Below are positions 9,597 to 39,706 of a stretch of 64,000 nt of DNA, one piece after another. Below the pieces are notes generated by a model. That model was given only the letters and a program-made list of their open reading frames with translations. It searched no databases and had not been told where the DNA came from. How positions within the stretch are numbered: the first letter of the stretch is position 1; the number at the start of each line of letters is the position of its first letter. The stretch is taken from positions 1 to 64,000 of the forward strand of contig NMRA01000415.1 in the NCBI GenBank assembly GCA_002633005.1. Reading direction: 5' to 3'. This DNA is from Phoronis australis. Taxonomy: Eukaryota; Animalia; Phoronida. The position numbers and the translations under genes are program-made.

Positions 9597-9680
9597 GACA
9601 ATAAAACTGCTTTCGACGTTTGCGGGGAACGCTGTAGTAATGACAACTATGATGTCGAGAGAACGAAGACTATCCTTAAG
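9597..9680 (+). CDS. repeat exon type X, copy 1 (DNKTAFDVCGERCSNDNYDVERTKTILK), ankyrin C-cap-like
   Basis: tttacag|...AAG|gtaccc; 84 nt, open, phase 0-0; xTAxDxx motif. Confidence 0.6.
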
Positions 9681-9710
9681 GTACCCAATAAATGACAGTG
9701 GGTCAGACAG

Positions 9711-10110
9711 GTGTTAATACTGTGCAATGGTAACGATAGACTATTGTCATCTGGTCATACATTCATGAGGTGGAGCCACCTGTTTGTCACGTGTTAATAC
9801 TGTGCAATGGTAACGATAGACTATTATCATCTGGTCATACATTCATGAGGTGGAGCCACCTGTTTGACACGTGTTAATAGTGTGCAATGGTAACGATAGA
9901 CTATTATCATCTGGTCATACATTCATGAGGTGGAGCCACCTGTTTGTCACGTGTTAATATTGTGCAATGGTAACGATAGACTATTATCATCTGGTCTTAC
10001 ATTCATGAGGTGGAGCCACCTGTTTGTCACATGTTAATACTGTGCAGTGGTAACGATAGACTATTATCTTCTGGTCATACATTCATGAGGTGGAGCCACC
10101 TGTTTGTCAA
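9711..10110. repeat. 80-bp minisatellite x5 in the X-Y intron
   Basis: gtgttaatactgtgcaatggtaacgatagact... with period 80. Confidence 0.95.
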
Positions 10111-10458
10111 CAGCTACAATGAACCTCAATCAACTCGTGTTCAGTCCAATCATCAATTTTTGACTAGGACCACATTCGACGTATTTGATTTCTGACTTTG
10201 CCTAGAGCTGATGTTTTGTTAATCAACGAGACCACTTTCGGCCTTCAAAAAATATCGCGTCTTGACATGCCAGCTTGTAGTGCCTGGTCCCAAACCAACG
10301 ACTGTCAGCATTATTCTGAAGCCCTGAACTGATCGTCATCTAGACTAAGAAACAGTTTGCGCCCCAATATTAGTCACTACTGAAATTTTATTTATTTTGG
10401 TTTGCACGTTATACTATCAAGACAGTCTGATTAAAAGATATTCGAAACTCACTTCCAG

Positions 10459-10670
10459 AAACACATGAAACTGCAACAGGAACGACAAAGGCAAGGCTGT
10501 GCTTTTGAAGTTCGACATCCTGCCACGGAAGGAGCGACCTCGGGTTCACCTGACCAAACTTTAGTAGCAAATGCTGGTCCGACTGATGAACAGGTTGGTA
10601 CAGTATTCGACAGTTTTACGAAATCAAAAGGGAAAACCACCCCGTAGGCCGAGGAGGACGGCATCCTGGA
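10459..10670 (+). pseudogene. repeat exon type Y, damaged 3' end (stop at 10645-10647, donor mutated to ataagt); possible short form 10459-10593
   Basis: cttccag|AAA CAC ATG... homologous to the other Y copies; internal CAG|gttggt at 10593. Confidence 0.55.
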
Positions 10671-10799
10671 ATAAGTGATGTTCCGTCTGCAGCCATATCA
10701 ACAATAATGCAGTAGATTACAAAAATAACGTATCTGCATAGTCTCATCTGTTACATGTAATAACAAATGGCATTTCGCATTTCATGTTCAAAAATGTCT

Positions 10800-12720
10800 G
10801 CTCCTCCCAACTGACACAATTTCTCATGCCGTGCTAAATAAAATAATCTTAAACAGTAAAAGCGTCACACCCTCCTCAACAGGTGATATTTCGTTCAATC
10901 AAAGTATGTTGGTAGATGTAGCAGATGTTTCAATACCTGTTATCACAATGTCAGCCAATATTTGATGATTAAGGAGAATCTTAATGTTACGTCATGTTTC
11001 TTCCAAACCTCCTATGAAAACCAACAATATTTCAGGTATAAAACTGTTAAGCTGTTATTTTCTATTTCACACTCCAGCTTGTTTTGGGTAATTCTAGTCA
11101 AAGCAATTCTTTCACTTGCTTTCATGGAATATTGTCGACTTTGGGATGTTTTTCTTACGAGACATCAGTCTATTTTTCTGTGTTACACCTAACCCGTGGT
11201 TATTGAGGATATTCCCCTGACAATACTCACATAAAACATTCAATTTTTTCTGCAGTCCCTAACCACTATTGGAAAGTGAGCTAATCGTCAGCAAATGCAA
11301 TAAATCAGCTGATCCCATGCAAATTTCCTCACCGCGTCCAGATTTTAATTCTTGCACTAAATCACTTATAAATAATGCAAAATAAACAGAAACGGTGATA
11401 GCTGAGAGCCTTGTCTTAGACCATTCTGACAGTGAAAGAACAGCGTATAGCTCCCATTATCCAATCTCACGCACGCTTTTACTTCCGCGTAAATTGTTTT
11501 GATTATCCTATACATCTCACCTACTATGTGATTGTTCTTTATTTTCAAACATAATACACGTCTATAGATACTATCAAAAGCTGCTTTAAAATCCACAAGC
11601 ACAACAGAATCTACCATTCTCTCGTGACAAGTATTTAATTATCAATGTATATCACTCAAATATGTGATCCACTGTACTGTACATGTACTCTTTCCTAGAC
11701 CCAGATTGAGGCATAGCAATAACGTTTTCTCTTTCACACTACTTATGAAGCCGTTGGCATAATTTTTCTCGAAACTTTTGGCTGTGATTTGCACGATCGA
11801 AATTGTTCTGAAATTTCCAGGGAGATTGGCCCCTCCCTAAAATATTAGTACTGTATTAAATTTTATCTATTCGTTTGGAAACAGTCCATTTTAAAAAAAA
11901 ACAGTTATATAGATGAAACAGCAAGTACCAACTGTTTATCACCCTACTTGTAAAACTCAATGACAATTTTATCACATCATGTCGAACATCCGCGATAAAT
12001 ACTATTGATGGTTTGTATAATTTCATTGTTTGTGATGTCAGCGTCCAGCTCCATGTCATTAATAATGACATTACCTGAATTTTCACTTAACGAATATCAT
12101 TCAGTGAACTTTGGATTAGCAACGAAATAACGGCCCTCAAACAGAGCTGACATAAGTAATCCATTCGCCGGTTTAATGTTGTTTTTTACGGATTTCTTCT
12201 TAATATTAAAAGTGCGTCAGAATTTTTACTGTCTTTAGTCTCCACAGCTGACTTTAAGTTTATGTGGTGTTTCCTGTTACACTCTAACCGTATCACTTTT
12301 TAATTTTCCATAATTCCTTCTAGCATATACATATATAATTTAGCTAAAGCTTCCTCTCAGTATTCCAACACTGAATCTAAAATTACTTCATTTTTGCCTA
12401 ACAACAGCTCTCATTTACCTACATTCAGCGTCAAATCATTCGTGGAAACAAAGTGGAATATGCAAAATGTTTACTTTGGGTTTAAACATGTCGGCTACAC
12501 ACGATTCAAAGGTTTCTGTTAAATTTTCCACACGTGAATCTGTGACTGATCAACTTCCGGTCTCGTCCATTTTTTTGCGTACCTCAAACACATTTTTTCA
12601 TCCCATTTATAAACATTTTCAATCTGTTCATCTCGAGCCCAGTGGTTTCGCTGCGTCTTACTCATTCTAAAAACAATCATTAACAAAGTCTACATCCTCT
12701 GTGTAGTATTTTTATCTCAT
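10800..12720 (-). mobile_element. decayed non-LTR retrotransposon (LINE) reverse transcriptase fragment
   Basis: Minus-strand motifs in RT order: PGNFRTISI, PQSGSRK..STVDHIF, VDFKAAFDSI, GLRQGSQLSPFLF, AFADD, broken by stops and frameshifts. Ends are approximate. Confidence 0.88.
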
Positions 12721-13188
12721 TTCGTTGACAAAATTCTAATAAAAATGGTTACGATCCATATTAATACTATACAATGCTAACGATAGAATACGATCATATG
12801 GCCATTTTTTATGAACTGGCGCCACCTGTGTGTCGATTGATCCCCTTGAGCATCCACAACCTAGATCTCAGTGCAGGAAGCGAACTTTTGGATTGGATCA
12901 CGTTCCACGTATTTGTGAATGCGGAACGATTGCAGACTCCGGAAAGAATTGATCTTTTGTTATTCAACGAGGCCACGATCATAAAATAAATAACACCTCG
13001 TGACAAGTAAGCTTGTGGAGTGTGGTCTTAATGCAACAGCTGTCAGTTCTTCTGAAGCCCGGAAGTGATCATGAAATCGACTAATTTACACTTTACGCCC
13101 ACACCTGGCTCGCTGCTGAATTTAAACGTAATTTGATTTGCACGTTCTATTCTACGGACAGTGCAAACTAAAAGAAACTTATTCTCAG

Positions 13189-13395
13189 AAACGCATGGAA
13201 CTTGAACGAAAAAGGCAGGACTGTGCTGTTGAAGTTCCACTACGTGCCTTGGAAGGGGCAACCGCTGATTCATCCGACCAAGCTTTGCAAGCGAGTGCTG
13301 GTCCGGCTGAAGAACAAGTTGGAAGAGTACTCGAAAGTTTTAGCAATTCAAAAAGCAATATCAACACAGATGTTGAAGTGCACGACAAAGTAGAA
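13189..13395 (+). CDS. repeat exon type Y (KRMELERKRQDC...EVHDKVE), 69 aa
   Basis: ttctcag|...GAA|gtaagt; 207 nt, open, phase 0-0. Confidence 0.7.
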
Positions 13396-13514
13396 GTAAG
13401 TGAAATTCCCTAAAAGACGACGAGTTTGTTTTTACTTGGCCAAATAACTTTCGCTAAGCATGTTGCTTTGCCATCAATGTTGATTTCATGGTGCTTTGAC
13501 ACTATTTTTTGTTC

Positions 13515-15889: not shown

Positions 15890-15967
15890 GAAAATGAAAC
15901 TGATTTCGACGTTTGCGAAGGACACAGTGGCATCGGCTATGTTAAGAAAATGAGGAATATATTAGAG
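15890..15967 (+). CDS. repeat exon type X (ENETDFDVCEGHSGIGYVKKMRNILE)
   Basis: tttacag|...GAG|gtaccc; 78 nt, open, phase 0-0. Confidence 0.55.
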
Positions 15968-16342
15968 GTACCCAATAAATAACTGTGCAATGGTAAAGAT
16001 AGACTAATATCATCTGGTCGCATTTTTATGAACTGGCGCCACCTGTTCGACAACTGATCTGCTTAAGCGTCAGTTGAAGTTGTGTTCAATCCAATAAGCA
16101 AATTCTTATTAAAACCACAGTTCACGTATTTGTAAAATTGCTTCCAACTTGTTCTGCACTTGGATGTGGAATCAATTCTGACTTGGCACAGAGCTGATCC
16201 TTTGTTGATCGACAATACCACGATATGACTACATAAAATATCACGTCATGAAAAGGTAGCTTGTAGAGCCTGGCCTTAAACCAATTACCGTCAGAGTTCT
16301 TTTGAAGCCAGTCACATTCAAATTGTCTAAGTAACAATTTAC

Positions 16343-16561
16343 GCAAACCTTCGATTCATGTATAAATATTTCCAATTACTCATTTGCAAACCTTCGATTC
16401 ATGTATAACTATTTCCAATTACTCATTTGCAAACCTTCGATTCATGTAGAACTATTTCCAATTACTCATTTGCAAACCTTCGATTCATGTATGACTATTT
16501 CCAATTACTCATTCGCAAACTTTCGATTCATGTATAACTATTTCCAATTACTCATTCGCAA
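16343..16561. repeat. 43-bp minisatellite, about 5 copies, at a segmental duplication junction
   Basis: Same unit as 564-862. Confidence 0.95.
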
Positions 16562-18215
16562 TCCTGAAACATGTTCAACTTGCATACACATAATCACAGT
16601 GCATTGATTCGTTAACTGTAGAGCAGTTCACCTGGCGGTGTTGTTATCGCCTAGCGAATGCTTACACTTCTGTAGCTTCGAATAGATTTCTACCAGCCGA
16701 CATGGATAGGAGTAAATTGGAAACATTTCCTTAGCGAGATTGACGGCTCTGTAACAAATTGGTAAACGATGACGTGTGTTAAAATTTATTGTTAAATGAA
16801 AAGTACTGAAAATATATCAATCGTTAAATAATACTTTAACGTGGATGATCGATTTTTAGTACATATGGAATATTTGTGCATTTTTCTTTGAACAAACAGA
16901 TTACATTACATTTTTTATGATGTCGATTTTCTTCTTGCACTTTTCTGACCCAGGCAAATACATTTGTTTAGAAGCTGGTGGATATAATGATGCCTTTAAC
17001 TTTATTTGCTAAACTGCTAGCTCTACCAGTACTTGCAGATCTCAGCAGACATCTTGTCCCAATGCAAGTGACAGATCTGATTGAAAAATACCAGAATACG
17101 GCAAACAGTGGGCTCTGTGTGAGAACGCAGACTGTTCGTTTTTCTATTAATCGAGTCTTCTGGGTCCCGAACAAACTGCAGTGGGTCTTCAAGACCTCCT
17201 GAGCTTTTAGTCAAACACCTTGATAAAGGGACAATTCTCCCATATTCACCGCTGAGTTGGAAACTGACCCATAAAAACATACTTAAATGTAGTTCCATCT
17301 GTTTTAACAGTTGGGGAGACCCTCCTTAGCCAGTTTCAAATAATCTGTTGATGGATTTAGAAAACAATTCCTATGATCTGCAGGTGAAAACTATTCCACA
17401 GGTGTTCCACTATAAACTCTAGCTAGGACCCACTAACCTCATGTTGCAGTTTGGCAAACAGGTGTTTTGTCAACTTGCAACATTGTGAATTGATGTGTGA
17501 AAGAAATTAATCGCACATAGGCGAGTTATTGCCACATTTGGGTATTGCTTGTTAGTCTATTTCCCCGATTGGGGTCCAGAGGATCGTACAATGTTGCTAG
17601 AGTGTAAAGGCAATTCCACCATTTCCACCCAAGATTATAGTCACTGCTTTGTATTATATAACAATTTTGATCACTCGTACATTATACGAAGCGGACTTGG
17701 ACACTGACAAGTGGTGCTTCGATTTGTGTCGCAGTCAAAACTCAGACGGCACGTTGATATTCTCAACGTTCCCTCTCAAACGTGTTAGATCCAAAAGTGG
17801 CCACAGACTTACTAAGTCCTACTTGGCAGTCTTTGGCCTCCAGTTTATATTTCAATTCGAACACAAATATTTTGAGAATTCGAGTAAAGTGTGAAGTTTA
17901 CAAGAAAGGTAATAGGATGTTAAGAAATATCCCACGAAATATCCACTTACACCTCTGGTTCGCTTGGTACATTTAAATCAATGGAAACAGCGGATTTTGA
18001 AGTAGATCATCACGATTTTTGTAGTTGTTTAACTTTTTTTAAAAATAAAATTCCAAGAAAACTTACCTCTTGCACTGTGGCCCACGCTTTCTAATCTCTA
18101 AATTCAGATACACTCCGATTGGCACTCAAACTTTCTCGTTGTTTATCAGGCTAAAACCGAAGTTCAAGTTGGCGGGCATTACAGGTATTATATCGTTTTC
18201 GTAAAATCCCTTACT

Positions 18216-18692
18216 TTCGAACGCGTAACTTATGGGATGATCAACTCGAGTTGAAGGCAATGTGTATACTTGCGTTACTTTTGAATGCGCAACTTACGGG
18301 ATTGTCAACTCGAGTTGAAGGCAATAAGTATACTTGCACTGAATTCGAATGCACAACTTATGGGCTGGTCAACTCGAGTTGAAGGCAATGTGTACAGTTG
18401 CGCTACTTTTGAATGCGCAACTTATGGGGTGGTCAACTCGAGTTAAAGGCAGTGAGTACACTTGCACTAATTTCGAATGCACAACTTATGGGCTGGTCAA
18501 CTCGAGTTGAAGGCAATGTGTACAGTTGCGCTACTTTTGAATGCGCAACTTATGGGGTGGTCAACTCGAGTTAAAGGCAGTGAGTACACTTGCACTAATT
18601 TCGAATGCACAACTTATGGGATGGTCAACTCGAGTTGAAGCAATGTGTACACTAGCGCTAATTTCGAATGCTCAAATTATGGGATGGCCAAC
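18216..18692. repeat. about 64-bp tandem repeat (7-8 copies), paralogue of 2520-2945
   Basis: Same unit with one more copy. Confidence 0.92.
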
Positions 18693-18756
18693 GCCAAAAC
18701 CTGAGTCGTTTTAATGATTTGATGATGATTATGATGTTCTTGTTGGCGACAACTTA

Positions 18757-19212
18757 TTAAGCGCGTTTTCGCATCACGCTGCTTTACACACCTCAACTAC
18801 AGGGTCCATATACTATTCTAGTCTTAAAGTAGCATGTGTATTCGATTAAAGTAAAACAACGGAAATATTAGCTGCCTAACTAAGATGATGTCTTATACAA
18901 GTTGTTTTGAAATTAAGCAGTTCGTGGTCGTGTTATCAAAAATACGTGGCGCCTACAATGAATATTTTGGAGGTTTGAACATAAGTCGTATAAATAATGG
19001 CGTAGTCATCTGCGCATAAGATTTGTGAAAATCATGATCTGTGCAAAAAGGCGCAATTTTGTAGAAATAACTCAGCCACTGTTTTGAGGCGTGAATCCAA
19101 TTTTTCATTTTTGAGGAATCCAAAAACATTGCATTTTAGGTTTGACATTACAGTTAAAAAGTGATTTGACGGAAGGGAAGTAGACTTCACCAGTGTTGAC
19201 ATTTGCCCTTAA
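18757..19212. mobile_element. TTAA-flanked repeat, chimeric A/B copy
   Basis: Left flank and body match copy A up to 19138; the last about 75 bp and the right flank match copy B. Confidence 0.7.
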
Positions 19213-19478
19213 GTTGACTAGGACGATTTTTTGACTCTAGGTACCTACATGTACATGTACGTGGTGAGAGTGATTGTACAAAGTCGCTATTCTCCATACT
19301 ATACGAAAAAGCCCATTCCAGTTAAATCAAAACGTAAAACTTGTTTATCAGATCTCACATGTCATAATTGCTTGGGTTCAACAATTCTACCGCCATATTT
19401 TCCTCTTGCTGTGTCCCATCATTTTACTCCTGTTTTAGCAGTAGCCCATCACAAATATAAGTGTGTCTATGTTTACAG

Positions 19479-19562
19479 GACAATAAAACTGCTTTCGACG
19501 TCTGCGGGAAATACTGTAGTAATGACAACGATGATGTTGAGAGAACGAAGACTATCCTTAAG
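19479..19562 (+). CDS. repeat exon type X (DNKTAFDVCGKYCSNDNDDVERTKTILK)
   Basis: Recent duplicate of 9597-9680 with intact splice sites. Confidence 0.55.
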
Positions 19563-19592
19563 GTACCAAATAAACGACAGTGGGTCAAAAAC

Positions 19593-19910
19593 GTGTTAAT
19601 ACTGTGCAATGGTAACGATATACTATTATCATCTGGTCATACATTCATGAGGTGGTGCCACCTGTTTGTCACGTGTTAATACTGTGCAATGGTAACGATA
19701 GACTATTTTCATCTGGTCATACATTCATGAGGTGGAGCCACCTGTTTGTCACGTGTTAATACTGTGCAATGGTAACGATAGACTATTATCATCTGGTCAT
19801 ACATTCATGAGGTGGAGCCACCTGTTTGTCACGTGTTAATACTGTGCAATGGTAACGATAGACTATTATCATCTGGTCATACATTCATGAGGTGGTGCCA
19901 CCTGTTTGTC
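19593..19910. repeat. 80-bp minisatellite x4 (paralogue of 9711-10110)
   Basis: Same unit, one fewer copy. Confidence 0.95.
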
Positions 19911-20262
19911 AACAGGTACAATAAGCCTCAATCAACTCGTGTTCAGTCCAATAATCAATTTTTGACTAGGACCACAGTCGACGTATTTGATTTCTGACTT
20001 TGCCTAGAGCTGATGTTTTGTTAATCAACGAGACCACTTTCGGCCTTCATAAAATATCGCGCCTTTTGACATGCCAGCTTGTAGAGCCTGGTCCCAAACC
20101 AACGACTGTCAGCATTATTCTGAAGCCCTGAACTGATCGTCATCTAGACTAAGAAACAGTTTGAGCCCCAATATTAGTCGCTACTGAAATTTTATTTATT
20201 TACGTTAGCACGTTATACTAAAACGACAGTCTGATTAAAAGATATTCGAAACTCACTTCCAG

Positions 20263-20474
20263 AAACACATGAAACTGCAACTGGAACGACAAAGGCAAGG
20301 CTGTGCTTTTGAAGTTCGACATCCTGCCACGGAAGGAGCGACCTCGGGTTCACCTGACCAAACTTTAGTAGCAAATGCTGGTCCGACTGATGAACAGGTT
20401 GGTACAGTATTCGACAGTTTTACGAAATCAAAAGGGAAAACCACCCCGTAGGCCGAGGAGGACGGCATCCTGGA
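20263..20474 (+). pseudogene. repeat exon type Y, damaged 3' end (duplicate of 10459); possible short form to 20397
   Basis: Near-identical to 10459-10670, with the same stop and the same broken donor. Confidence 0.5.
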
Positions 20475-20599
20475 ATAAGTGATGTTCCGTCTGCAGCCAT
20501 ATCAACAATAATGCAGTAGATTACAAAAATAACGTATCTGCATAGTCTCATCTGTTACATGTAATAACAAATGGCATTTCGCATTTCATGTTCAAAAAT

Positions 20600-21740
20600 G
20601 TCCGCTCCTCCCAACTGACACAATTTCTCATGCCGTGCTAAAGAAAATAATCTTAAACAGTAAAAGCGTCACACCCTCCTCAACAGGTGATGTTTCGTTC
20701 AATCAAACTATGTTGGTAGATGTAGCAGATGCTTCAATACCTGTTATCACAATGTCAGCCAATATTTGATGATTAAGGAGAATCTTAATGTTACGTCATG
20801 TTTCTTCCAAATCTCCTATGAAAACCAACAATATTTGAGGTATAAAACTGTTAAGCTGTTATTTTCTATTTCACACTCCAGTTTGTTTTGGGTAATTCTA
20901 GTCAAAGCAATTCTTTCATTTGCTCTCATGGAATATTGTCGACTTTGGGATGTTTTTCTTACGAAACATCAGTCTATTTTTCTGTGTTACACCTAACCCG
21001 TGGTTATTGAGGAGATTCCCCTGACAATACTCACCTAAAACATTCAATTTTTTCTGCAGTCCCTAACCACTATTGGAAAGTGACCTAATCATCAGCAAAC
21101 AGCAAATGCAATAAATCAGCTGATCCCATGCAAATTTCCTCACCGCCTCCACATTTTAATTCTTGCACTAAATCACTTATAAATAATGCAAAATAAACGG
21201 AAACGGTGATAGCTGAGAGCCTTGTCTTAGACCATTCTGACAGTGAAAGAACAGCGTATAGCTCCCATTATCCAATCTCACGCACGCTTTTACTTCCGCG
21301 TAAATTGTTTTGATTATCCTATACATCTCACCTACTATGTGATTGTTCTTTAATTTCAAACATAATACAAGTCTATAGATACTATCAAAAGCTACTTTAA
21401 AAGTCACAAGCACAACAGAATCTATCATTCTCTCGTGACAAGTATTTAATTATCAATGTATATCACTCAAATATGTGATCCACTGTACTGTAAATGTAAT
21501 CTTTCCTAGACCCAGATTGAGGCATAGCAATAACGTTTTCTCTTTCACACTACTTATGAAGTCGTTGGCATAATTTTTCTCGAAACTTTTGGCTGTGATT
21601 TGCACGATCGAAATTGTTCTGAAATTTTCAGGGAGATTGGCCCCGACCTAAAATATTAGTACTTTACTAAATTTTATCTATTCGTTTGGAAACAGTCCAT
21701 TAAAAAAAAAAACAGTTATATGGATGAAACAGCAAGTACC
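20600..21740 (-). mobile_element. duplicate, truncated copy of the decayed LINE RT fragment
   Basis: Matches about 10800-11930; the sequence then jumps to the equivalent of about 12920. Confidence 0.85.
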
Positions 21741-21943
21741 ATGCGGAGCGATTGCAGACTCCGGAAAGAATTGATCTTTTGTTATTCAACGAGACCACGA
21801 TCCTTGCATAAAATAAATAACACCTCGTGACAAGTAAGCTTGTGGAGTGTGGTCTTAATGCAACGGCTGTCAGTTCTTCTGAAGCCCGGAAGTGATCATC
21901 AAATCGACTAAGTTACACTTTACGCCCAGACCTGACTCGCTNG

Positions 21944-22039
21944 AAACACTTGGAACTGGAACGACAAAGGCAGGACTCTGCTGTTGAAGTTCCACCACGT
22001 GCCTTGGAAGGGGCAACCGCTGGATCTTCCAACCAAACT
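21944..22039 (+). pseudogene. 5' fragment of a type Y exon immediately after an N
   Basis: KHLELERQRQDSAVEVPPRALEGATAGSSNQT, truncated and followed by a fresh acceptor region. Confidence 0.45.
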
Positions 22040-22083
22040 ATAAAAGAGAGTCCGATTAAGAGATATTCGAAACTTACTTCCAG

Positions 22084-22290
22084 AAACACTTGGAACTGGA
22101 ACGACAAAGGCAGGACTGTGCTGCTGAAGTTTTACCACGTGCCTTGGAAGGAGCAACCGCTGGTTCATCCGACCAAACTTTGCAAGCGAGTGCTGGTCCG
22201 ACTGAAGAACATGTTGGCACAGTACTTGAAAGTTTTAGCAAATCAAAAGGCAATACCAACACAGAGGGTGAAGTGCACGACAAAGTAGAA
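22084..22290 (+). CDS. repeat exon type Y (KHLELERQRQDC...EVHDKVE), 69 aa
   Basis: cttccag|...GAA|gtaagt; 207 nt, open. Confidence 0.7.
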
Positions 22291-24678
22291 GTAAGTGAAA
22301 TTCCCTAAAAGATGGAGAGTTTGTTTTTACTTGGCCAAATAACTTTCGCTAAGTATGTTGCTTTGCCATCAATGTTGATTTCATGGTGCTTCGACACTAT
22401 TTTTTGTTCTTTTTATGCGCCAACATATTCATTTGTGCACACATTATGCCGTCATTTCCGGCATGAGCGAAACTTTCGGACGGTTCCGATTACCGGTGCG
22501 GAGGAGCTTTACTAAGTTTAACAAGTGTATGACTATGATGTTGACAATGGACGAATACCGGTGACCACCCTACTGGCAATTTTAGGTTTTTACACTTACG
22601 TCTGTATCTTCGTATTTTCGTAAAATTCGTCGTAGTTTGCGGCACCTACTGTACTACCAAATTTACTGTTTTTGCGTGTGTTTTTGGCGTCCATTCCTCT
22701 ACCAACCACACCGCTTCCAGGATGATTGTGAAAATTGCCATGTATGTTTCTACTATGAAGACGACGGCTTACGATGACTTTCCGACGACTTTGGTTTCTG
22801 TGGGTCCTGCCGCTGGCAGTTTAGTTTTTTGCGCCTATGCCTGTGTATACTAACTCGTTTGCATGATATTTATTAAAATGTTCTAGTGTATTTAGTTGAT
22901 ACTGACTACGGACGACGACTCTTTTAGGAAAGATCTGACAACCACTTTGCCCCTTGTGGCAAATTTAATTTTTTTACGTTTACTATGTAGCTTCAAAAGT
23001 CCTCAGCGTATTTTCACAAAATTTTGAATATGAGCATAATATTGGTGAGGTGACACTATCCTCACGTTGTCGGAAAGAATTGCTATATTTTTCGGCATGT
23101 AGTGGACAAATTTGTTGTTTTCGAGTTAGTTTTTCCACCCATGTCTCTGTCAACCAAACCTCTCTAAAGATGGTTTTGAAAATTAACGTCATCTTCTCAG
23201 TTTAAAGAGGACGGCTGACAATGAGGACTTGCATACCGTGGCACCTCCTAGTGGTAGCTTTGCTTTGTTTAGCGCCCAATGCAGGATCTTTATTTAATTT
23301 AGTAAGTGATGCTAACGACAGACAACGGCGACTTTCAGGCGGTTCTGAGAAACACTCTGTCCCCTAGGCGCTATTTCATTTTTTCATGTTTTCGTTTGCC
23401 TGGTTGTAGTTTCACGTTAGATTTTCTTTGAAATTTTGTGAAAAATCTTTCTACTGGTTTCCATTTTTGCATCATCAAGTGGCCATTTATAAACTACAAA
23501 AACAATCCTAAAAGTACACCATTTGCGGCGCATGTGTGGCCGCATTTAAACTCTCCCACTCGCTCTTGTTTTGGTTTGTCAGTACTCCACATTGTACAGG
23601 TTGCATTTGTAGACTGATTCGTATGGAGTCTTCACAAAACCATTAGTAGTAGCAGACGCCTGCTGTTTTTCGTAATTTTTGAATTCAAATGGCAGACATG
23701 GCCTCCATTTTGTCTTAGATTTCAGGTTCAACTGCTCATAGAGACGGTAATTTGTGACGTAGGCAATTAAAAAACGGCACATTTATTGTTACTAACGTGT
23801 ACTTCAAATACACTGGAAATCATTTACTTCCTGTTAAAGATAAAGGATATATCGACCATTGCATGCGACCCTCAATTTTGGAAAGGAAAGTTTTGTCCTG
23901 TAGAGAGTGCATTTTAGGACCAATTGCTTCCAAATATTTCATGTTGAAGTTTCATGTTGGATTTCGCGCATTTTCATCCATTTTTAACCCTCCTGCCGAT
24001 TTGAATGAAAAGAGTAAATGACGTGGAATTTTGTGTGTAGATTCACTGAGGTATATTGTATCAAATGATTGGCAACAATTTCCTCTCAGAGTTACTGGTT
24101 TTGAGCTATTTGTCTTTGGAAATATTGACATTTTTATGGACTTTTGTTGAACTAATGCATCAGATAGAGTTTTGAAGGTTGTTTCTATTTGTCACAAATT
24201 TTGAATTATTTGAGATTTTCATTTGTCTTATGATTTTGCTGCACTTTTGGTGGTCTACCTTGCAATGAACAAGACTATAGCCTATTTCTTACTCCTTTCA
24301 GACAGCTTCTTTCGGCCCATGAATGTTTTCATCGTGTTCATTATCGCCATTTTAATCATCAACTTCATCATCGTCATCATCATCTCCACTGGGATATTTT
24401 CAGCTAATTTCACCAATACTCGCTACTCCGAGAGCTTTCATTGTATTCTTTATTTGATTTAATTCCCTGCAGTGTTAAGAACAATAATACACTAGATTAC
24501 AAAAATAGCGCATTTGCACCGTCTTTTTTGTTAAGACCATTCATCATATCTCACACGTGTCACCGTTCTAAAATTCTACCGTCTTATCTTCTTGCTGTGT
24601 CCTATCAAACTCTCTTTTTTATTTTACTCCTGTTTTTGTATCTGTCCATCATAAATACAAGTGTATCTTTGTTTACAG

Positions 24679-24756
24679 GAAAATGAAACTGCTTTCGACG
24701 TTTGCGAAGGACACAGTGGCATCGGCTATGTTAAGAGAATAAGGAATATATTAGAG
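24679..24756 (+). CDS. repeat exon type X (ENETAFDVCEGHSGIGYVKRIRNILE)
   Basis: Intact AG/GT, 78 nt. Confidence 0.55.
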
Positions 24757-25130
24757 GTACCCAATAAATAACTGTGCAATGGTAAAGATAGACTAATATC
24801 ATATGGTCGCATTTTTATGAACTGGCGCCACCTGTTCGACAACTGATGTGCTTAAACGTCAGTTGAAGTTGTGTTCAATTCAATAAGCAAATTCTTATTA
24901 AGACCACAGTTCACGTATTTGTAAAATTGCTTCCAACTTGTTCTGCACTTGGATGTGGAATCAATTCTGACTTGGCACAGAGCTGATCCTTTGATGATCG
25001 ACAATACCACGATATGACTGCATAAAATATCACGTCATGAAAAGGTAGCTTGAAGAGCCTGGCCTTAAACCAATTACCGTCAGAGTTCTTTTGAAGCCAG
25101 TCACATTCAAATTGTCTAAGTAACAATTTN

Positions 25131-26915
25131 AATTTCGTAAGTGATGCTAACGACAGACAACGGCGACTTTCAGGCGGTTCTGAGAAACACTGTGTCCCCT
25201 AGGCGCTATTTCATTTTTTCATGTTTTCCTTTGCCTGGTTGTAGTTTCTCGTTAGATTTTCTTTGAAATTTGGTGAAAAATCTTTCTATTGATTTCCATT
25301 TTTACATCATCAAGTGGCCATTTATAAACTACAAAAACAATCCTAAAAGTACACCAGTTGCGGCGCATTCGTGGCTGCATTTAAACTCTCCCACTCGCTC
25401 TTGTTTTTGTTTGTCCGTACTCCACATTGTACAGGTTGCATTTGTAGACTGATTCATATGGAGTCTTCACAAAACCATTAGTAGTAGTAGACGCCTGCTG
25501 TTTTTCGTAATTTTTGAATTCAAATGGCAGACATGGCCTCCATTTTGTCTTAGAATTCAGGTTCGACTGCTCATAGAGACGGTAATTTTTGACGTAGGCA
25601 ATTAAAAAACGGCACATTTATTGTTACTAACGTGTACTTCAAATACACTGGAAATCATTTACTTCCTGTTAAAGATAAAGGATATATCGACCATTGCATG
25701 CGACCCTCAATTTTGGACAAGAAAGTTTTGTCCTGTAGAGGGTGCATTTTAGGACCAATTGCTTCCAAATATTTCATGTTGAAGTTTCATGTTGGATTTC
25801 GCGCATTTTCATCCATTTTAACCCTCCTGCCGATTTGAATGAAAAGAGTAAATGACGTGGAATTTTGTATGTAGATTCACTGAGGTACATTGTATCAAAT
25901 GATTGGCAACAATTTCCTCTCAGAGTTACTGGTTTTGAGCTATTTATCTTTGGAAATATTGAAAATTTTATGGACTTTTGTTGAACTAATGCATCAGATA
26001 GAGTTTTGAAGGTTGTTTCTATTTGTCACAAATTTTGAATTATTTGAGATTTTCATTTGTCTTATGATTTTGCTGCCCTTTTGTGTTCTACCTTGCAATG
26101 AACAAGACTATAGCCTATTTCTTACTCCTTTCAGACAGCTTCTTTCGGCCCATGAATGTTTTCATCGTGTTTATTATCGCCATTTTAATCATCAACTTCA
26201 TCATCGTCATCATCATCTCCACTGGGATATTTTCAGCTAATTTCACCAATACTCGCTACTCCGAGCGCTTTCATTGTATTCTTTATTTGATTTAATTCCC
26301 TGCAGTGTTAAGAACAATAATACACTAGATTACAAAAATAGCGCATTTGCACCGTCTTTTTTGATAAGACCATTCATCATATCTCACACGTGTCACCGTT
26401 CTAAAACTCTACCGTCTTATCTTCTTGCTGTGTCCTATCAAATACTCTTTTCTATTTTACTCCTGTTTTTGTATCTGTCCCTCATAAATACAAGTGTATC
26501 TTCGTTTACAGGAAAATGAAACTGCTTTCGACGTTTGCGAAGGACACAGTGGCATCGGCTATGTTAAGAGAATGAGGAATATATTAGAGGTACCCAATAA
26601 ATAGCTGTGCAATGGTAAAGATAGACTAATATCATCTGGTCGCATTTTTAGAAGTTGTGTTCAATCCAATAAGCAAATTCTTATTAAGACCACAGTTCAC
26701 GTATTTGTAAAATTGCTTCCAACTTGTTCTGCACTTGGATGTGGAATCAATTCTGACTTGGCACAGAGCTGATCCTTTGTTGATCGACAATACCACGATA
26801 TGACTGCATAAAATATCACGTCATGAAAAGGTAGCTTGTAGAGCCTGGCCTTAAACCATTTACCGTCAGAGTTCTTTGGAAGCCAGTCACATTCAAAGTG
26901 TCTAAGTAACAATTT
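25131..26915. repeat. third copy of about 14511-16340 / 23297-25129, starting right after an N
   Basis: Collinear near-identity. Confidence 0.9.
26512..26589 (+). CDS. repeat exon type X (ENETAFDVCEGHSGIGYVKRMRNILE)
   Basis: Intact AG/GT, 78 nt. Confidence 0.55.
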
Positions 26916-27015
26916 ACTCCCCAGTATGGCTGGCTGCTGTACTCCAGCGTATATTGGTTAGCACGTTGTACTCTACGGACAGTCAGATTGAAACATATCT
27001 GTAACACACTTCCAG

Positions 27016-27228
27016 GAAAACATGGAAGTGGAACAACAAAGACAAGGTTGTGGGGTTGAAGGTGTACCACCTGCCTCTGGAGGAGCGACCACGTTTTCAC
27101 ATGACCAAACTTTAGGTGGGAGTGCTGTTCCGACTGAGGAACAGTTTATAGCAGCAGGTCAACTTGAAGCTTTTAACAAATCAAAAGGCAAAACCATCAC
27201 TGAGGGTGAAACGGACGACGCAATAGAA
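27016..27228 (+). CDS. repeat exon type Y (ENMEVEQQRQGC...ETDDAIE), 71 aa
   Basis: cttccag|...GAA|gtaagt; 213 nt, open. Confidence 0.7.
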
Positions 27229-28518: not shown

Positions 28519-28697
28519 AAGCTCATGGGAGTGGAACGACATTGGCAAGGCTGTGCTGTTGAAGATCTACCTCGTGCCGTGGACGGAGCAACCGCTGGTT
28601 CATACGACCAAACTTTAGTAGAAAATGCTGGTCCGACTGAGGAACAGGTTGGTACAGTACTGCAAAGCTTTACCAAATCAAAAGGCGATGCCATCAC
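28519..28697 (+). pseudogene. repeat exon type Y lacking its terminal donor (about 40-bp deletion); possible short form to 28647
   Basis: gccatcac runs straight into cctaaaa, skipping the ...GAA|gtaagt seen in the paralogues. Confidence 0.5.
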
Positions 28698-30572: not shown

Positions 30573-32617
30573 GTCTACTGATACACTAAGGCGTCCACAA
30601 ACCCTTGTTCTGTCCAAGAATAGACTTTTTGACTAGAACCACGTTCCATGTATTAAGAGCAGTTTACACCGCAGTTTGGCTCGCTGGTGTATCTTAACTT
30701 ATTTCGGTTAGCACGTTATACTTTGTGGACAGTCCGATTAAAAGATATTCGACACTTACTTCCAGAAGCTCATGGGAGTGGAACGACAATGGCAAGGCTG
30801 TGCTGTTGAAGATCTACCTCGTGCCGTGGACGGAGCAACCGCTGGTTCATACGACCAAACTTTAGTAGCGAATGCTGGTCCGACTGAGGAACAGGTTGGT
30901 ACAGTACTCCAAAGTTTTACCAAATCAAAAGGCGATGCCATCACCCTAAAAAGTTTCAAGTTCGTTTTTTAATTCGTCAAATAAATTTCGGTAGGTACAT
31001 GTATGTTGCTTTGGCATCAATTTTGATTTGATGTTGCACTTACACTAAGGCTTTTTTCCTTTTTCATGCGCCAACATGTTTATCTGCGGACTCAATATGT
31101 CGTCATCCCCGTCCTGCGTCAGTCCGGCGTCCGTCCGGCGAGAGGCGTCCGGCGCCCGCTGCTTTATCCCCAAAACCATTTGAGGTATATGTATGTTCAT
31201 GATATTGTGCATATGTATTCCTTTCATGGGTGGATGTTATGAGTGACATTTCGGACGGATCCGACTACCTGTGTGCAAAATATTTACTGAGTTTAGCAAG
31301 TGTATTCAAATGATGTTGAGAATGGATGACGACGACTTTCCGATGAATCTGACTACCGGTGTGCCCCCTAGTGGCAATTTTATTTTTCTTGCTATTACCT
31401 CACTAAAGGTCCTCGACGCGTTTCCATAAATTCGTCGTAGATTGCGTAACATAGTAGCCATTTTTAATGTTTTTTTGCGTCTGAATTTTTGATGCACATC
31501 GATCTGTTATCTACATCGTTATCAGGACGATTGCGGAGATTGGCACATGTTTTTACTACAGTACGAAGAGGACGGTTTATTATGATTTTCCGACGACTTA
31601 GCTTACTGTGGCACCTGCTTTGGGTTGTTTTGTATGTTTTGTCCATGGCTGTATCTCCTAAACNAACGTACAACGACTACTTTCGGACCGATCTGACTAC
31701 CATTGTGCCCCCTTGTGGCAACTTTATTTTGTTACGTTTAAATATGTGTAGAAGCCATGGGCATTGAACACACGGGATGTCGCATAGGATACGTTCATTC
31801 ACAACTAAGTTAAAGTTGCATGCGCACTGTACTACAAGAACGGTTTCACTGAAACAAATATACTGCACTAAACCGTCTTATACAATACGAGAAACGGCCA
31901 GCCAGGGTAGTATGACAAAAGTAGTGTGAACTTACAATGATGTATGCTCTAGGCTCCATCTAATCATCGATAGTGTTATATGAGTTACTAGCATAACAAT
32001 ACTATGTATCACCTAATATCCTCAAAGAATTTTCACGAACTTTTGAATATAGGCATCTATTGGTGAGGTGGCGCTATCATTCAATTGTCGGATAGAATTG
32101 AGGTATTTTACAGCACCTAGTAGCCATTTTTTGTTGTTTACATGTCTCAGCTTTTTGGAGTTCAACCATCTAGCAACCAAAATATTCTTAAGATGGTTTT
32201 GGAAATTGGAGTGGATGCTGTACATGTATTCTGATTGTGAAGAGAACACGTTCTCAGTTTGAAGAGGACGGTTGACGATGAGGACGTCGAATATTGTGGC
32301 GCTTCCTAGCGGCAGTTTTGTTTTGTTTTGCGCCCAATGCGGTATCTTTATTTAATTTAGTACGCGAAGCTACATGTAACAACAGGCGACGATGACTTTC
32401 AGGCGGTTCTGACGAACATTGCGCCCCCTAGTTGTAATTTCATTTTATTATGTTTTCTTTGCTTCTCTGAAGTTCCCTGATAGATTTTCTTTCAAATTTG
32501 GTAAAAACTTTTCGTTTAATATACCAATGACATTTTCAAAGTTTGAGATAGTTTGCACTTTCTTGTGGCCATTTTTATCATACAAAAATAACCCTGAACG
32601 CACATGATTTTCGGTCT
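30573..32617. repeat. tandem duplicate of 28326-30571, starting right after an N
   Basis: Collinear near-identity; internal N at 31664. Confidence 0.9.
30766..30944 (+). pseudogene. repeat exon type Y lacking its terminal donor (duplicate of 28519); possible short form to 30894
   Basis: Near-identical to the 28519 copy. Confidence 0.5.
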
Positions 32618-33697: not shown

Positions 33698-33775
33698 GAA
33701 AATGAAGCTGCTTTCGACGTTTGCGAAGGACAACGTGACATCGGCTATGTTGAGAAAATGAGGAATATGTTTCAG
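33698..33775 (+). CDS. repeat exon type X (ENEAAFDVCEGQRDIGYVEKMRNMFQ)
   Basis: tttacag|...CAG|gtactc; 78 nt, open. Confidence 0.6.
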
Positions 33776-34229
33776 GTACTCAGTGGTGAATTTAGACTAT
33801 TACCATCTGGCCACTATTTTATAAACTATCTCCACCTGTTTGACTACTGGTCCGCTTATTCGTCAATTGAAGTCCTGTTCGGTCCAGTATGCAGATTCTT
33901 ATTAGGACCACAGTCCACGTAATTGTAAAATTGTTTACAAATTGTTCTGCACTTGGATGAGGAATTATTTCTGACTTCACTCAGAGCTCATCTCTTTTTG
34001 AACGACAAGTCCACAATATACCTGCATAAAATATCACGTCTTGAAAAGCTATCTTTTAGAGCCCGGTCTTAAGCCAAAGAAATCTTTTGAAGCCCTGAAG
34101 TGACCTTCAAATTTTCTAAGTAACAGTTAACTCCCCAGTATGGCTGGCTGCTGTACTTCAGCGTATATTGGTTAGCACGTTGTACTCTACGGACAGTCCG
34201 ATTGAAACATATCCGTAACACACTTCCAG

Positions 34230-34442
34230 AAAAACATGGAAGTGGAACAACAAAGACAAGGTTGTGGTGTTGAAGGAGTATTAGCTGCCGTTGAACGAGC
34301 GACCGCTGGTTCCCCTGATCAAACTTTAGGTGCGAGTGATGGTCCGCATAAGGAACAGGTTGCTGTAATAGGCCTACTTGAACCTTTTACCAAATCAAAA
34401 GGCAAAACCATCACTGAGGGTGAAGCAGATGACGAAATAGAA
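34230..34442 (+). CDS. repeat exon type Y (KNMEVEQQRQGC...EADDEIE), 71 aa
   Basis: cttccag|...GAA|gtaagt; 213 nt, open. Confidence 0.72.
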
Positions 34443-35469
34443 GTAAGTGACATTCGCTGAATGTTTTGAAGCTCTTTTCTATTTTTTTTACTCGAGTTAA
34501 TTGACTGTAGTTAAATTGACTCATGACCAATAATACAGTGGATTACAGAAATAGCATTTCTGTATTGTCTAATCTGTAACCAGTAATAAGAAGTCTTGGG
34601 TAAATCTACAGTAGCACACTTAATTTTGCATGTCACGTTTTTTATGTTGGAAGCTGATAGTGGACAATTAAAATAATAATCGTTTTGATCACACATTCCT
34701 GTTTGGTTTGTATGTTTCTTGCCAAAACATTTTTTATTTTTTCTTACTTGCCTTCGCGAGGAATAAATATACTTTATCTGTGTTACCCATCACCCCCATT
34801 GCTTAGGATTCTCGCCAGCAATACGACGAGAGGATCAGAACAACGGTTATTCAATCAAAACTATCTACATGTATGGGTGCTTCAACTTTAACCTTTCAAA
34901 GTTACTTTTACGAAAAATCGCAGATGAAGACTCTTGTTTTGTACTAACATGACGACTAAGCACGACAATATAATCTAAGGTCAGCATCGTGAGGTACATG
35001 TAGTAATCAAACATGGTAGACCTCACAAGTTTGAGTTGCGTTTTACATGTAGTAATCAAACATGGTAGACCTCACAAGTTTGAGTTGCGTTTAAGGTAAA
35101 AGCAAAACTTTCTGTTATCACATTGATATAGTCACGTGACACTAAGCCTGGAGTTTAATGTTCGAATTTTTGCTTGAGACGGGTGTCATTGTCTGTTGCA
35201 AGCGCTTTTTACCTATTTGCGCGACATAGTGGCCATTTTCAATGTTTTTGAGTCAGTTTTTATATGTGGACGCATTATGCCGTAATCTCCGTCCGTCCGT
35301 CCGCGTTGCTCTTGTTACCTGTTAGGTTTGTTGTAGTCTTGACTCAAACATTTTTATATGTGGACGCATTATGCCATCATCTCCGTCCGTCCGTCCGTGT
35401 TGCTCTTGTTATTGTAGTCTTGACTCAAACATTTTTTATCTAAGGTTTGTTGCATTTTTCCGACCAAAA

Positions 35470-35760
35470 CTTTTTAATCTATAAGTCTCCTGCGAGCACT
35501 TTTCCATCAAGTTTCCTTCCTCTTTAATGAAAACACCTTCTCATCTATTAAGTTAGAGATAGATTTTCCGCAAGCTGTTTTTAAATCACGTAGTTTGGGG
35601 CAAGTTTCCAGCAAACTTAAGTATTTGAAGGTAAGATGCGGCAATGTGTGTGGCTGATTTGCGGGTAGCGACAAATTCCTGCAGTTACTGCGGCTTGTTT
35701 GCCGCAAGGTTGCGGAATGTTTGCAGCAAGATTGCAGCAAACGTAGCGTTTTGGTATGGG
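35470..35760 (-). mobile_element. inverted terminal fragment of the same CACTA-like family as 48336-50759
   Basis: Ends in ttttggtatggg; reverse-complement similarity to 48336-48750. Confidence 0.7.
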
Positions 35761-36661
35761 CGCTGCCTTTTATTGTGGCAAAACCATTTCTGTTCCACCT
35801 GAGGGGCATAAACTTTATTGCTTGTAAATTAAGCGTAGTTTGGCACATTTGCCAGCCTTAATTTGTCATCGATATCTTTGTGTGGTATTATATCTTACTG
35901 TCTAAGTGTGGGAATAAATGCGCTTCTGTTGCATTACGATCGTAGAAATTAAAATATTTGGAGGTAAAAAGAGCTGACACTCATTGCTTGAGACCACGCT
36001 CAATGTACAAATTATCCGCCGTAAAAAGTCACTTTGTTGAACTGTTGATCCTTTCCAAGCGGGGAAATCATATGTTATTTGAATGTGAAACAAGTTGAGA
36101 CCAGACTCATATCTCCGATATACAAACATTTTCTAATTCAGATATTTTCCGGTCTACATGTACGCCAGGAACTCGCTAAACTCTAGCCTGAACCACACAT
36201 CGATACCCCACATAATCAAGCCAATTCTTAGTTTTTACCGAAGTTCTAACGTTATTGAACTCACTGAGGCCTTGTTACAAGCAGAAAGTGGATTCATACT
36301 TTTATAAAGTATGTCAATCAATTTTATAAGGGGGTATTGACTGGTTTTGAATAAATTTAACTCGTAGGCGGCTGAAATCATTTTGCTTCGGCGTCCTACA
36401 TCTCCAACTCACCCTAGCGTCAGTAATGTATGTTAATGGTACAGAAAAAATAACAATGGTTCCAACACATGTCAATACTTGTAGCGCGTGATCTCGGAGC
36501 AATGGCTGTCAGTTCTTTTGAAGGCCTGAACTGATCTTCAAATTCACTGAGAAACAATTTACGCCCCAAAATTGCTTGCTGCTGAATTTCTAACTTATTT
36601 TGTTTTGCACATAATGCCCTATGTGCAGTCCGATTAAAACATATTCGAAACTCACTTCCAG

Positions 36662-36868
36662 GAACACAAAGAACCGGGAGAGCAAAGGCAAGGTTGTGCT
36701 TTTGAAATTTTACCGCGTGCCGTGAAAGGAACAATCATGGGTTCATCTGATCAAACTTTGGAAGCTAGTGCTAATCCGATTGTGGAACAGGTTGGTGCTG
36801 TACCCAAAGATTTTACCAAATCAAAACCCAAAACCATCAATGAGGGTGAGAGGGACGACAAACTAGAA
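36662..36868 (+). CDS. repeat exon type Y, last copy (EHKEPGEQRQGC...ERDDKLE), 69 aa
   Basis: cttccag|...GAA|gtgagt; 207 nt, open; not listed in the ORF track. Confidence 0.72.
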
Positions 36869-39588: not shown

Positions 39589-39706
39589 AATTCAAGCGAA
39601 AAAGAGGAAAACAGAAATAGGTGCAACAGCGCTCAACCCACCAACGATGCGAAAGGACATACTGTTTATCCTGATGTGGAAGAATTTGACGACATGGAGG
39701 GTCAAT
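39589..39706 (+). CDS. acidic linker exon (NSSEKEENRNRC...DVEEFDDMEGQ) joining the phase-0 repeat exons to the ZU5-like exon
   Basis: attaaag|AAT...CAAT|gtaagc; open, phase 0 to 1; the split codon T+GG gives Trp in frame with exon 40735. Confidence 0.7.

Follow-up and report, generated by a model that had tools for sequence, protein, structure and literature searches.

Titin PEVK and tropoelastin are examples of disordered regions that arose from tandem-duplicated symmetric exons. In human genes generally, symmetric exons are associated with disorder and with internal tandem duplication, according to the available part of PMC3632108. Tandem homologous exons that cover tens of kb and encode a variable region are also known from Dscam and from the TEP/alpha-2-macroglobulin clusters (BgTEP2, CfTEP, Drosophila TEP2); BgTEP2 and CfTEP are secreted thioester proteins described as using one exon per transcript. 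A third related arrangement is that of CARD8 and NLRP1, in which a disordered N-terminus is followed by FIIND (ZU5 plus UPA) and CARD. Autoproteolysis near the end of ZU5 takes place at an FS motif, and the Gln-Gly pair is a site of 3C-type proteases. In CARD8 the autoproteolysis residue is S297 and cleavage sites lie at Gln residues (PMC10249858, in the part available); unrelated disordered sequences can serve there as well, as stated in the accessible part of PMC7594595.

We analysed 64,000 nt of Phoronis australis DNA (contig NMRA01000415.1, positions 1 to 64,000; the window), in which two classes of homologous exons, X and Y, form an array upstream of a predicted caspase domain. The array is real and expressed, yet smaller and more ordinary than first proposed.

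Composition of the array

All 6 X and 10 Y exons or fragments of the original prediction were recovered with nhmmer within the window (Table 1). Each of the six X copies has AG..GT borders, phase 0-0 and a length of 78 or 84 nt, and five full-length Y copies (Y2, Y2', Y3, Y5 and Y6) of 207 or 213 nt end at a distal GT, which upholds the lengths and canonical splice sites claimed for the intact copies. Four further Y copies are symmetric as well, in a short form, but of the 16 copies only nine exons are distinct, in the order X1 Y1 Y2 X2 Y3 Y4 X3 Y5 Y6 and 69-88% alike within each class. The rest are near-identical repeats: seven of the 16 copies are 89-99.5% identical, in the exon, to another copy, the lowest value being that of the 21943 fragment (89%). 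The 118-nt exon at the end of the linker was missing from the earlier list of exons. Further upstream, near 8720, one more candidate exon was rejected, with zero depth over 8701-9367 in all three runs.

Table 1. Exons and repeats of the array and of the downstream part of the gene
Feature	Position	Strand	Evidence
X1, 84 nt, phase 0-0	9597..9680	+	Read depth 10 at 9602-9612, runs X2 and X3
Y1, short form via internal donor, 135 nt	10459..10593	+	99.5% twin at 20263
Y2, first copy, 207 nt	13189..13395	+	Unusually diverged from twin
X2, first copy, 78 nt	15890..15967	+	Splice sites, phase
Second copy of ~644-16342, holding X1', Y1', Y2', X2'	16343..25129	+	
X1', 93% to X1	19479..19562	+	Splice sites, identity
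Y1', short form via internal donor	20263..20397	+	Run X1 contig over 20261-20397
Y2 fragment, likely assembly overlap	21943..22053	+	Immediately behind an N
Y2', 207 nt, expressed Y2 type	22084..22290	+	RNA contig, read depth
X2'	24679..24756	+	Splice sites, phase
X2'', likely redundant with X2'	26512..26589	+	In 1.8-kb repeat starting at N 25130
Y3, 213 nt, internal donor lost	27016..27228	+	Joint 27228>28519, 9+12 reads
Y4, 129 nt, distal donor deleted	28519..28647	+	Entry by RNA; internal-donor exit inferred
Y4', likely assembly duplicate	30766..30894	+	Repeat bounded by Ns 30572 and 31664
X3, 78 nt	33698..33775	+	Joint to 34230, 7+1 reads
Y5, 213 nt long form; 129 nt short form, donor at 34358	34230..34442	+	
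Y6, 207 nt long form; 129 nt short form, donor at 36790	36662..36868	+	
Unique acidic exon, 118 nt, phase 0-1, end of linker	39589..39706	+	RNA joints
800-nt exon, 266 aa, predicted ordered	40735..41534	+	Joint 39706>40735
Seven predicted exons ending in caspase domain, SHG + QSCR	43403..51962	+	Pfam PF00656, open frame
Predicted exons, first four	43403-43513, 45149-45179, 45865-45963, 46567-46769	+	
Predicted exons, last three	47582-47669, 48164-48319, 51679-51962	+	

Deduced protein and divergence of the exons

Collapsed to one copy per exon, the chain of 18 exons has all AG/GT sites and a single open frame of 1077 aa, with the caspase motifs SHG at residue 898 and QSCR at 940; the connection between 41534 and the caspase exons is a prediction from sequence. 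PF00656 (Peptidase_C14) matches in three pieces (E 6.9e-6, 7.7e-4 and 8.6e-9), two of them above the gathering score. The C-terminus is the caspase domain; the pieces scanned gave no CARD match, and neither a DED nor a death domain was recognised in the window. FoldIndex is below zero for all nine array exons, a prediction that agrees with the disorder originally proposed, and +0.135 for the 800-nt exon, while the array-encoded segment has a net charge of -37 in 448 aa. The array likely encodes an acidic, predicted-disordered spacer, which would measure about 450 aa with one copy per exon and about 685 aa if all assembled intact copies are real and included.

The 266-aa domain encoded by the 800-nt exon, which resembles ZU5/UPA only by eye, gave no match to ZU5, UPA or FIIND in Pfam, PDB or sequence libraries. 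Comparison with longer proteins accepted none of 630 candidates, that with 1.84 billion representatives gave no match, and the best PDB match (galectin-7, E 0.066) was taken as chance. Leads from the Atlas were OB folds (0.85-0.92), weak and with low shared-feature counts, and the single-sequence AlphaFold model had a pLDDT of 32.5. The homology search with the p10 exon likewise accepted none of its one candidate. These empty searches likely reflect the absence of this animal's proteins. Pfam searches with X, Y, the 118-nt exon and a candidate at 355-449 yielded nothing that was accepted; a weak match to HH_signal in one Y frame (E 0.027) was taken as chance.

The amino acids of Y appear to diverge about neutrally. 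For the four distinct full-length Y, which are paralogous exons, pooled dN/dS is 0.83 (bootstrap 0.50-1.41), and invariant bases over the codon positions of Y number 20, 17 and 21. The RQ(G/D)C motif, formerly described as conserved, shows no significant conservation: among the 43 codon columns of six distinct Y, 11 do not vary, against 8.5 expected neutrally (P=0.23). Nor do the exons diverge more slowly than the adjoining upstream introns, the values being 0.69-0.82 and 0.63-0.88, respectively, for the five full-length Y without the near-identical 13189/22084 pair. Frame, in contrast, is kept better in exons: all three distinct exon indels are 6 nt long, whereas among 71 intron indels only 13 have a length that is a multiple of three (intron blocks partly overlap). 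In a neutral simulation all nine used exons were stop-free in 4 of 2000 cases, a partly circular result because exon ends were picked by frame. Between the first copy of Y2 and its twin, 21 of the 207 nt are different, versus about 3% in the flanks (P=2e-6), and 15 of 18 polarised changes in this pair sit on one copy; pure drift does not explain this divergence.

The reading that we favour, with moderate confidence, is that X and Y are old intragenic tandem duplicates, spliced in series wherever RNA joints could be seen, which likely encode an acidic disordered spacer and in which selection likely acts on frame and splicing only. This corresponds to the alternative named in the original prediction, a tolerated product of intragenic duplication, which fits best. 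Duplication would have begun with an X-Y unit, after which a Y-X-Y block was doubled; a history of three X-Y-Y units was dropped for this one (in the tree, Y3+Y5 has 100% support and other deep nodes about 50%). The spacer would stand before the folded domain and the caspase. The caspase is encoded further downstream in this frame and would be lost through a frameshift or stop codon in any exon that is included, so phase-0 duplications and indels would survive and amino acids would drift.

Another reading, which we consider unlikely, makes the array an unfolded bait of the CARD8/NLRP1 kind, presenting many target sites at once, which would release or activate the caspase on being cut by a pathogen protease or on being degraded. 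It is in keeping with the predicted disorder and with the Gln-Gly pair that recurs in five of the six distinct Y; near-neutral drift is also compatible with bait, as unrelated disordered sequences suffice in CARD8 (PMC7594595, same part). The gene is moreover very polymorphic, with in-frame insertions of 3 and 6 nt in the 800-nt exon and a changed residue in 10 of the 15 array codon changes listed; X2 and X3 differ by nine replacement and no silent changes (too few for significance), and the gene is nearly silent in run X4 and expressed in runs X2 and X3. However, besides the lack of a ZU5, UPA or FIIND match and the OB folds among the weak leads, FS occurs just once in the 800-nt exon, near residue 32, and the by-eye autoproteolysis position reads EHSA. 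The motif conservation within chance also speaks against bait, as does a dN/dS among paralogous exons that is not clearly above 1, whereas the NLRP1 and CARD8 tripwires are under positive selection (PMC10249858, as far as available). Because the ZU5 label is unconfirmed, this is a minority reading, and the parallel originally drawn with ZU5, NLRP1 and CARD8 is not supported. Slightly more doubtful is its fullest version, a one-molecule invertebrate sensor in which the caspase would stand behind a cryptic ZU5/UPA-like domain and a disordered bait that can grow exon by exon, each repeat with a drifting Gln-Gly target, varied by donor choice and haplotype copy number.

Splicing in series and the internal donor of Y

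Junction counts come from two runs of one study, with 15 of 25 joints listed in one table and 15 of 43 in the other (14 of the 15 listed in the latter are transposon-derived). Among the joints listed, the exons are connected in series as X3>Y5>Y6>39589>40735, Y3>Y4 and Y2-type>X-type, with 8 reads for X3>Y5, 15 (7+8) for Y5>Y6 in the long form of Y5, 21 for Y3>Y4 and 20+6 for 39706>40735. At least two X and at least two Y are thus spliced in, contrary to the first half of the condition named as refuting the original proposal. The joints X1>Y1, Y1>Y2, X2>Y3 (intact form) and Y4>X3 are absent among those listed. Y2' is represented by a contig over 22081-22277 with three differing letters and by a read depth of 18-20 in run X2. 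The run X1 contig over Y1' ends at the internal donor and continues elsewhere; this twin, rather than Y1 at 10459, is the copy on which RNA ends.

The internal donor, a new finding, lies in frame at nt 129/135 of Y and removes 26-28 aa from Y5 and Y6. The short form of Y5 is seen in one contig of run X1, and Y6 has 12+4 long and 7+5 short reads plus one short-form contig. The four Y copies that have no usable distal donor (Y1, Y1', Y4 and Y4') keep the internal one in phase 0 at nt 135/129, and their short forms are therefore symmetric too; at least one phase-0 donor is found in all nine full-start Y copies. In Y1 and Y4 the distal half has decayed (in the 10459 copy it is interrupted by a stop codon and its donor is dead) and the internal donor is kept, whereas in Y2 and Y3 the internal donor has decayed and the distal one is kept. 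The internal donor likely rescues the 'broken' exons Y1 and Y4, and decay of either donor would go with retention of the other. Spacer length would vary likely through the internal donor and possibly through copy number between haplotypes. Of the proposal that splicing diversifies the linker, length-changing alternative splicing is thus retained and a pick-one exon bank is not, neighbouring exons being chained.

Regulated combinatorial skipping, which would tune linker length by tissue or condition and make the serial joints merely the commonest form, seems improbable to us. Every exon is 0-0, the internal donor is heavily used in Y6 (12 short versus 16 long reads), the first copy of Y2 is without gene-strand reads in runs X2 and X3 and is covered by no contig of run X1, and implied depth is lowest on Y6 and X1, all of which would suit such regulation. 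Among the joints listed, however, there is no in-frame whole-exon skip, and the only skip, from Y3 to 39589 (3 reads, run X2), uses a phase-1 donor and breaks the frame; the counts, again, come from only two runs of one study, and rarer skips may lie beyond the joints listed. In seven reads of run X2 the end of an X2-type exon is connected to an exon resembling Y3 that seemingly lacks 16 nt, and these two unproductive joints indicate that frame is not absolutely kept. Implied depth (rough, from bin means) is 8-28 on eight expressed array exon groups and 13-19 on the 800-nt exon; this similarity suggests that most transcripts likely include most exons.

Assembly seams and comparison with known systems

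The window holds four Ns (21942, 25130, 30572 and 31664), all within 5 nt of the end of a self-match of at least 90%, a condition true of 1.3% of window bases. Given this coincidence of Ns with repeat seams, the copies at 21943, 26512 and 30766 are likely assembly duplicates. N seams occur at three of the four near-identical duplications; the largest, 16343..25129, which is 89-97% identical by block to ~644-16342 with large indels, has no N at its left seam. It may be either a real duplication or a second haplotype, and its four copies X1', Y1', Y2' and X2', in gap-free tandem, may be real. That the array arose for the most part through misassembly of a highly heterozygous genome is very improbable and, as an explanation of the whole, already refuted. 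The N seams and an RNA depth that is not doubled on duplicated exons point that way, as does the gap found most often between the copies of false haplotype duplications (PMC9516828, available part), but an artefact accounts for at most seven of the 16 copies, has no gap at the seam of the largest repeat, and leaves nine exons of the divergence given above, which independent RNA connects at exact GT..AG junctions. A mutually exclusive bank with one exon per transcript, as in Dscam or the bait-like regions of snail and scallop TEPs, has next to no probability: homologous tandem exons over about 27 kb recall the 12 exons along 30 kb of BgTEP2 (PMC7016707, available part), but the direct Y-Y and X-Y joints rule out one-of-many use.

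If the series of old duplicates that we favour is correct, the locus offers a clean natural example of how a disordered region can grow through symmetric-exon duplication under frame-only selection, and it contains its own internal control: in Y1 and Y4 the distal halves, left unspliced, decayed and the spliced halves remained open. It also carries the warning that haplotype seams inflate copy counts in arrays of this sort. If the bait reading is correct instead, protease-tripwire immunity would extend to a caspase of an invertebrate, with a bait built from repeats.

In a literature search at title and abstract level, no caspase with an exon array of this kind was found. With family C14A the gene shares the p20 and p10 pieces as well as the His-Gly and Gln-x-Cys-Arg motifs; it differs in having about 850 aa before the catalytic domain, and neither a CARD nor a DED nor a death domain was recognised within the window. 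With the TEP clusters and Dscam it shares the tandem homologous exons, but here they are chained. As in CARD8 and NLRP1, a long predicted-disordered segment, a folded beta-rich domain and a cell-death effector are combined, but the effector is a caspase instead of a CARD, the disordered part is a multi-exon repeat, ZU5/UPA is unmatched, FS is absent from the by-eye site, and the paralogous exons give no signal of positive selection. The locus agrees with disordered regions built from tandem-duplicated symmetric exons (PMC3632108) in phase symmetry, duplication, predicted disorder, serial inclusion and length-changing splicing; unlike them, it stands before an invertebrate caspase, its amino acids drift near-neutrally, and a shared in-frame internal donor replaces the decayed distal donor in two of its exons.

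Copies and assembly of the array

The proposed array of about 16 exons upstream of the caspase is real and expressed but partly over-counted. All six X and ten Y copies, the two classes of duplicated exon, were recovered by nhmmer on the plus strand between 9.6 and 36.9 kb. The intact lengths first claimed (78/84 and 207/213 nt, with canonical splice sites) hold for the six X copies, all of them phase 0-0 exons (78 or 84 nt) flanked by AG and GT, and for the five Y copies with a GT donor at 207 or 213 nt. In Y10459 and Y20263 (Y1 and its twin Y1') codon 63 is a stop and the distal donor is dead, the distal donor is deleted in Y28519 and Y30766 (Y4 and Y4'), and 21943-22053 is a Y fragment.

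Repeats of the window fall into two classes, old (about 65-79%) and young (89-97%). All four single Ns lie within 5 nt of a young-repeat end, a condition true of 1.3% of window bases, and therefore one of X24679 and X26512, one of Y28519 and Y30766, and the Y fragment are likely artefacts, leaving 13 copies. The left seam of the large duplication (644-16342/16343-25129) has no N: the X2-Y3 intron stops at 16340 and abuts a 43-nt minisatellite, which marks the seam, and the second large copy stops at the identical intron base, followed by an N. This duplication is the less clear case: the pattern would fit a breakpoint that is real in one haplotype or both. Within the second copy, 18755-19213 is one repeat where the first copy has two (3008-3467 and 8861-9320); about three quarters of it resembles the former and the rest the latter, a switch that marks a 5.85-kb deletion by recombination.

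Once the large duplication is collapsed, nine distinct exons remain, ordered X1 Y1 Y2 X2 Y3 Y4 X3 Y5 Y6. Intron homology points to a doubling of the block Y2-X2-Y3 that gave Y4-X3-Y5; the tree joins Y3 and Y5 with 100% support, its deep nodes being unresolved.

Splice joints (among the joints listed) and other features of the window
Feature	Coordinates	Evidence
Joint X3>Y5		7+1 reads, runs X2+X3
Joint Y5>Y6		7+8 reads, runs X2+X3
Joint Y6>new 118-nt exon	>39589	12+4 reads, runs X2+X3
Joint 118-nt>800-nt exon	39706>40735	20+6 reads, runs X2+X3
Joint Y2-type end>X-type start		6+3 reads, runs X2+X3
Joint Y3>Y4	in 8701-28700	9+12 reads
Joint from Y6 internal donor	36790>39589	7+5 reads, one run X1 contig
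Joint from Y5 internal donor	34358>36662	one run X1 contig
Young repeat	644-16342 vs 16343-25129	self-comparison
Young repeat	23293-25129 vs 25131-26915	self-comparison
Young repeat	28326-30571 vs 30573-32617	self-comparison
Young repeat, Y fragment	21943-22053	self-comparison
Further old direct repeat	59199-59760 vs 63183-63743	72%, no long reading frame
Minisatellites (unit)	564-866 (43 nt), 2516-2945 (64), 9711-10109 (80), 41679-42337 (46), 48499-48753 (41)	
Intronic repeats, high-copy transposon-like elements	13500-14500, 22460-23300, 32000-32600, 35300-35400	hundreds to thousands of 85-95% RNA matches
Frames resembling a decayed LINE reverse-transcriptase fragment	11366-11638, 21177-21449 (minus strand)	by eye

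Splicing of the array exons

Four RNA runs were compared, one set of contigs (run X1, 0.05 word share) and three of raw reads (runs X2-X4, same species label); the RNA comes from different individuals, whose species is the same or very close, and a paralogous gene elsewhere is a possible source. Joints are the best 15 of 25 for 31670-41660 and, for 8701-28700 in runs X1-X3, the best 15 of 43, 14 of the 15 being transposon noise; run X4 had almost no reads on the gene. The Y3>Y4 reads show that the 'broken' Y4 is spliced in. X1>Y1, Y1>Y2, intact X2>Y3 and Y4>X3 are absent among the joints listed. Seven reads (run X2) lead from an X2-type end into a Y3-like exon that seems to be 16 nt short, and three reads join a phase-1 donor in Y3 to 39589; both joints would end translation early. 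Depth from bin means, which are rough and subject to cross-mapping, is 8-28 on expressed array exons; for the 800-nt exon it is 13-19. Duplicated exons give no sign of doubled depth.

An internal donor in Y5 and Y6 yields a 129-nt, phase-0 short exon, and a run X1 contig on 20261-20397 exits exactly at the same donor of Y1'. By sequence it is kept in all four Y copies without a distal donor, and it is lost or weakened in Y2 and Y3, which keep the distal one. A second in-frame AG lies 5' of every Y acceptor, at a distance of 33 nt (27 nt in Y13189), and in 8 of 9 copies a Ser-Asp-stop (TAA or TGA) comes next. Of the 39 intron bases that precede the acceptor, 23 are invariant, vs 58/129 in the exon. 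This upstream AG, used by none of the joints listed, could be a poison acceptor.

The encoded protein

One copy per array exon, together with the downstream exons, makes a single open frame that encodes 1077 aa, and every join has AG/GT. The deduced chain contains the caspase motifs SHG and QSCR, and Peptidase_C14 is matched in three pieces (Pfam); past 41534 the gene model is predicted. The array supplies 448 aa with a net charge of -37, and the suspected disorder agrees with prediction, FoldIndex being negative for 9/9 array exons. With all 15 intact copies of the assembly the array would reach 685 aa, still in open frame.

The gene's 5' end lies before 8701. A candidate upstream exon of 95 nt at 355-449 has good splice sites; one frame is open throughout and ends in phase 2, another is open over the last 23 codons and ends in phase 0, which matches X1. 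It has no Pfam match; its peptide may resemble death-domain or ankyrin helices. The 118-nt exon (39589-39706) that closes the linker encodes EEFDD just before the folded domain, a possible caspase-type cleavage site, judging by site preference.

The ZU5 domain placed downstream of the array by the original prediction was not recovered: the 266-aa exon (the 800-nt exon, 40735-41534) matches nothing in Pfam, PDB or the sequence library, single-sequence prediction gave no fold, and the Atlas offers weak OB-fold leads. By eye it looks like ZU5 followed by UPA; EHSA stands at the self-cleavage position expected by eye, and FS occurs just once, near residue 32. The part of PMC3482391 consulted is ZU5 background, and no conclusion here rests on it. 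RNA alleles of this exon vary at 40901, 40979 and 41000-41309: there are insertions of 3 nt and 6 nt that keep the frame, and one RNA contig differs at 18/310 bases. Either the gene is highly polymorphic or a paralogue is involved.

Selection and possible role of the array

Array exons diverge about as much as the adjoining upstream intron, and pooled dN/dS is 0.83 (bootstrap 0.50-1.41, four distinct full-length Y), with 0.77-1.76 for X1 vs other X. The conserved Y motif that had been claimed does not stand out, 11 of 43 residues being invariant vs 8.5 expected under neutrality (P=0.23), and the invariant bases are independent of codon position. Frame, on the other hand, is kept better than in introns: all three distinct exon indels measure 6 nt, whereas among intron indels 13/71 have a length divisible by three. 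Of 2000 neutral simulations, 4 left every one of the nine used exons free of stops; the test is partly circular. As an internal control for frame selection, Y1 and Y4 have decayed solely past the internal donor. Y13189 (13189-13395) and its twin differ at 10% of bases, vs about 3% in the flanks, and Y13189 accounts for 15 of 18 polarised changes; it also has a 6-nt deletion ahead of its acceptor and no RNA in runs X1-X3. Its excess divergence possibly reflects an old allele, or else conversion by a copy that was not sampled.

The array is probably a passive, disordered spacer of variable length. It would lengthen by duplication of phase-0 exons, a known pattern according to the part of PMC3632108 consulted, and would be policed for frame alone because the caspase lies downstream. 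A CARD8-like bait is unlikely: in CARD8 the role can be filled by disordered sequences unrelated to each other (PMC7594595, in part) and Gln-Gly recurs in 5 of 6 Y, but such tripwires are under positive selection and depend on FIIND self-cleavage (PMC10249858, in part), neither demonstrated for this gene. Slightly less probable still is regulated skipping of array exons. As to the splice variability originally proposed, a length-changing internal donor is indeed used, but among the joints listed neighbours are joined in series.

Search listings of the literature revealed no comparable exon array in a caspase. Snail and scallop TEPs, as described in the part of PMC7016707 consulted, have mutually exclusive exon banks; in the present array, by contrast, Y is joined directly to Y, and these junctions rule out such a one-of-many bank.
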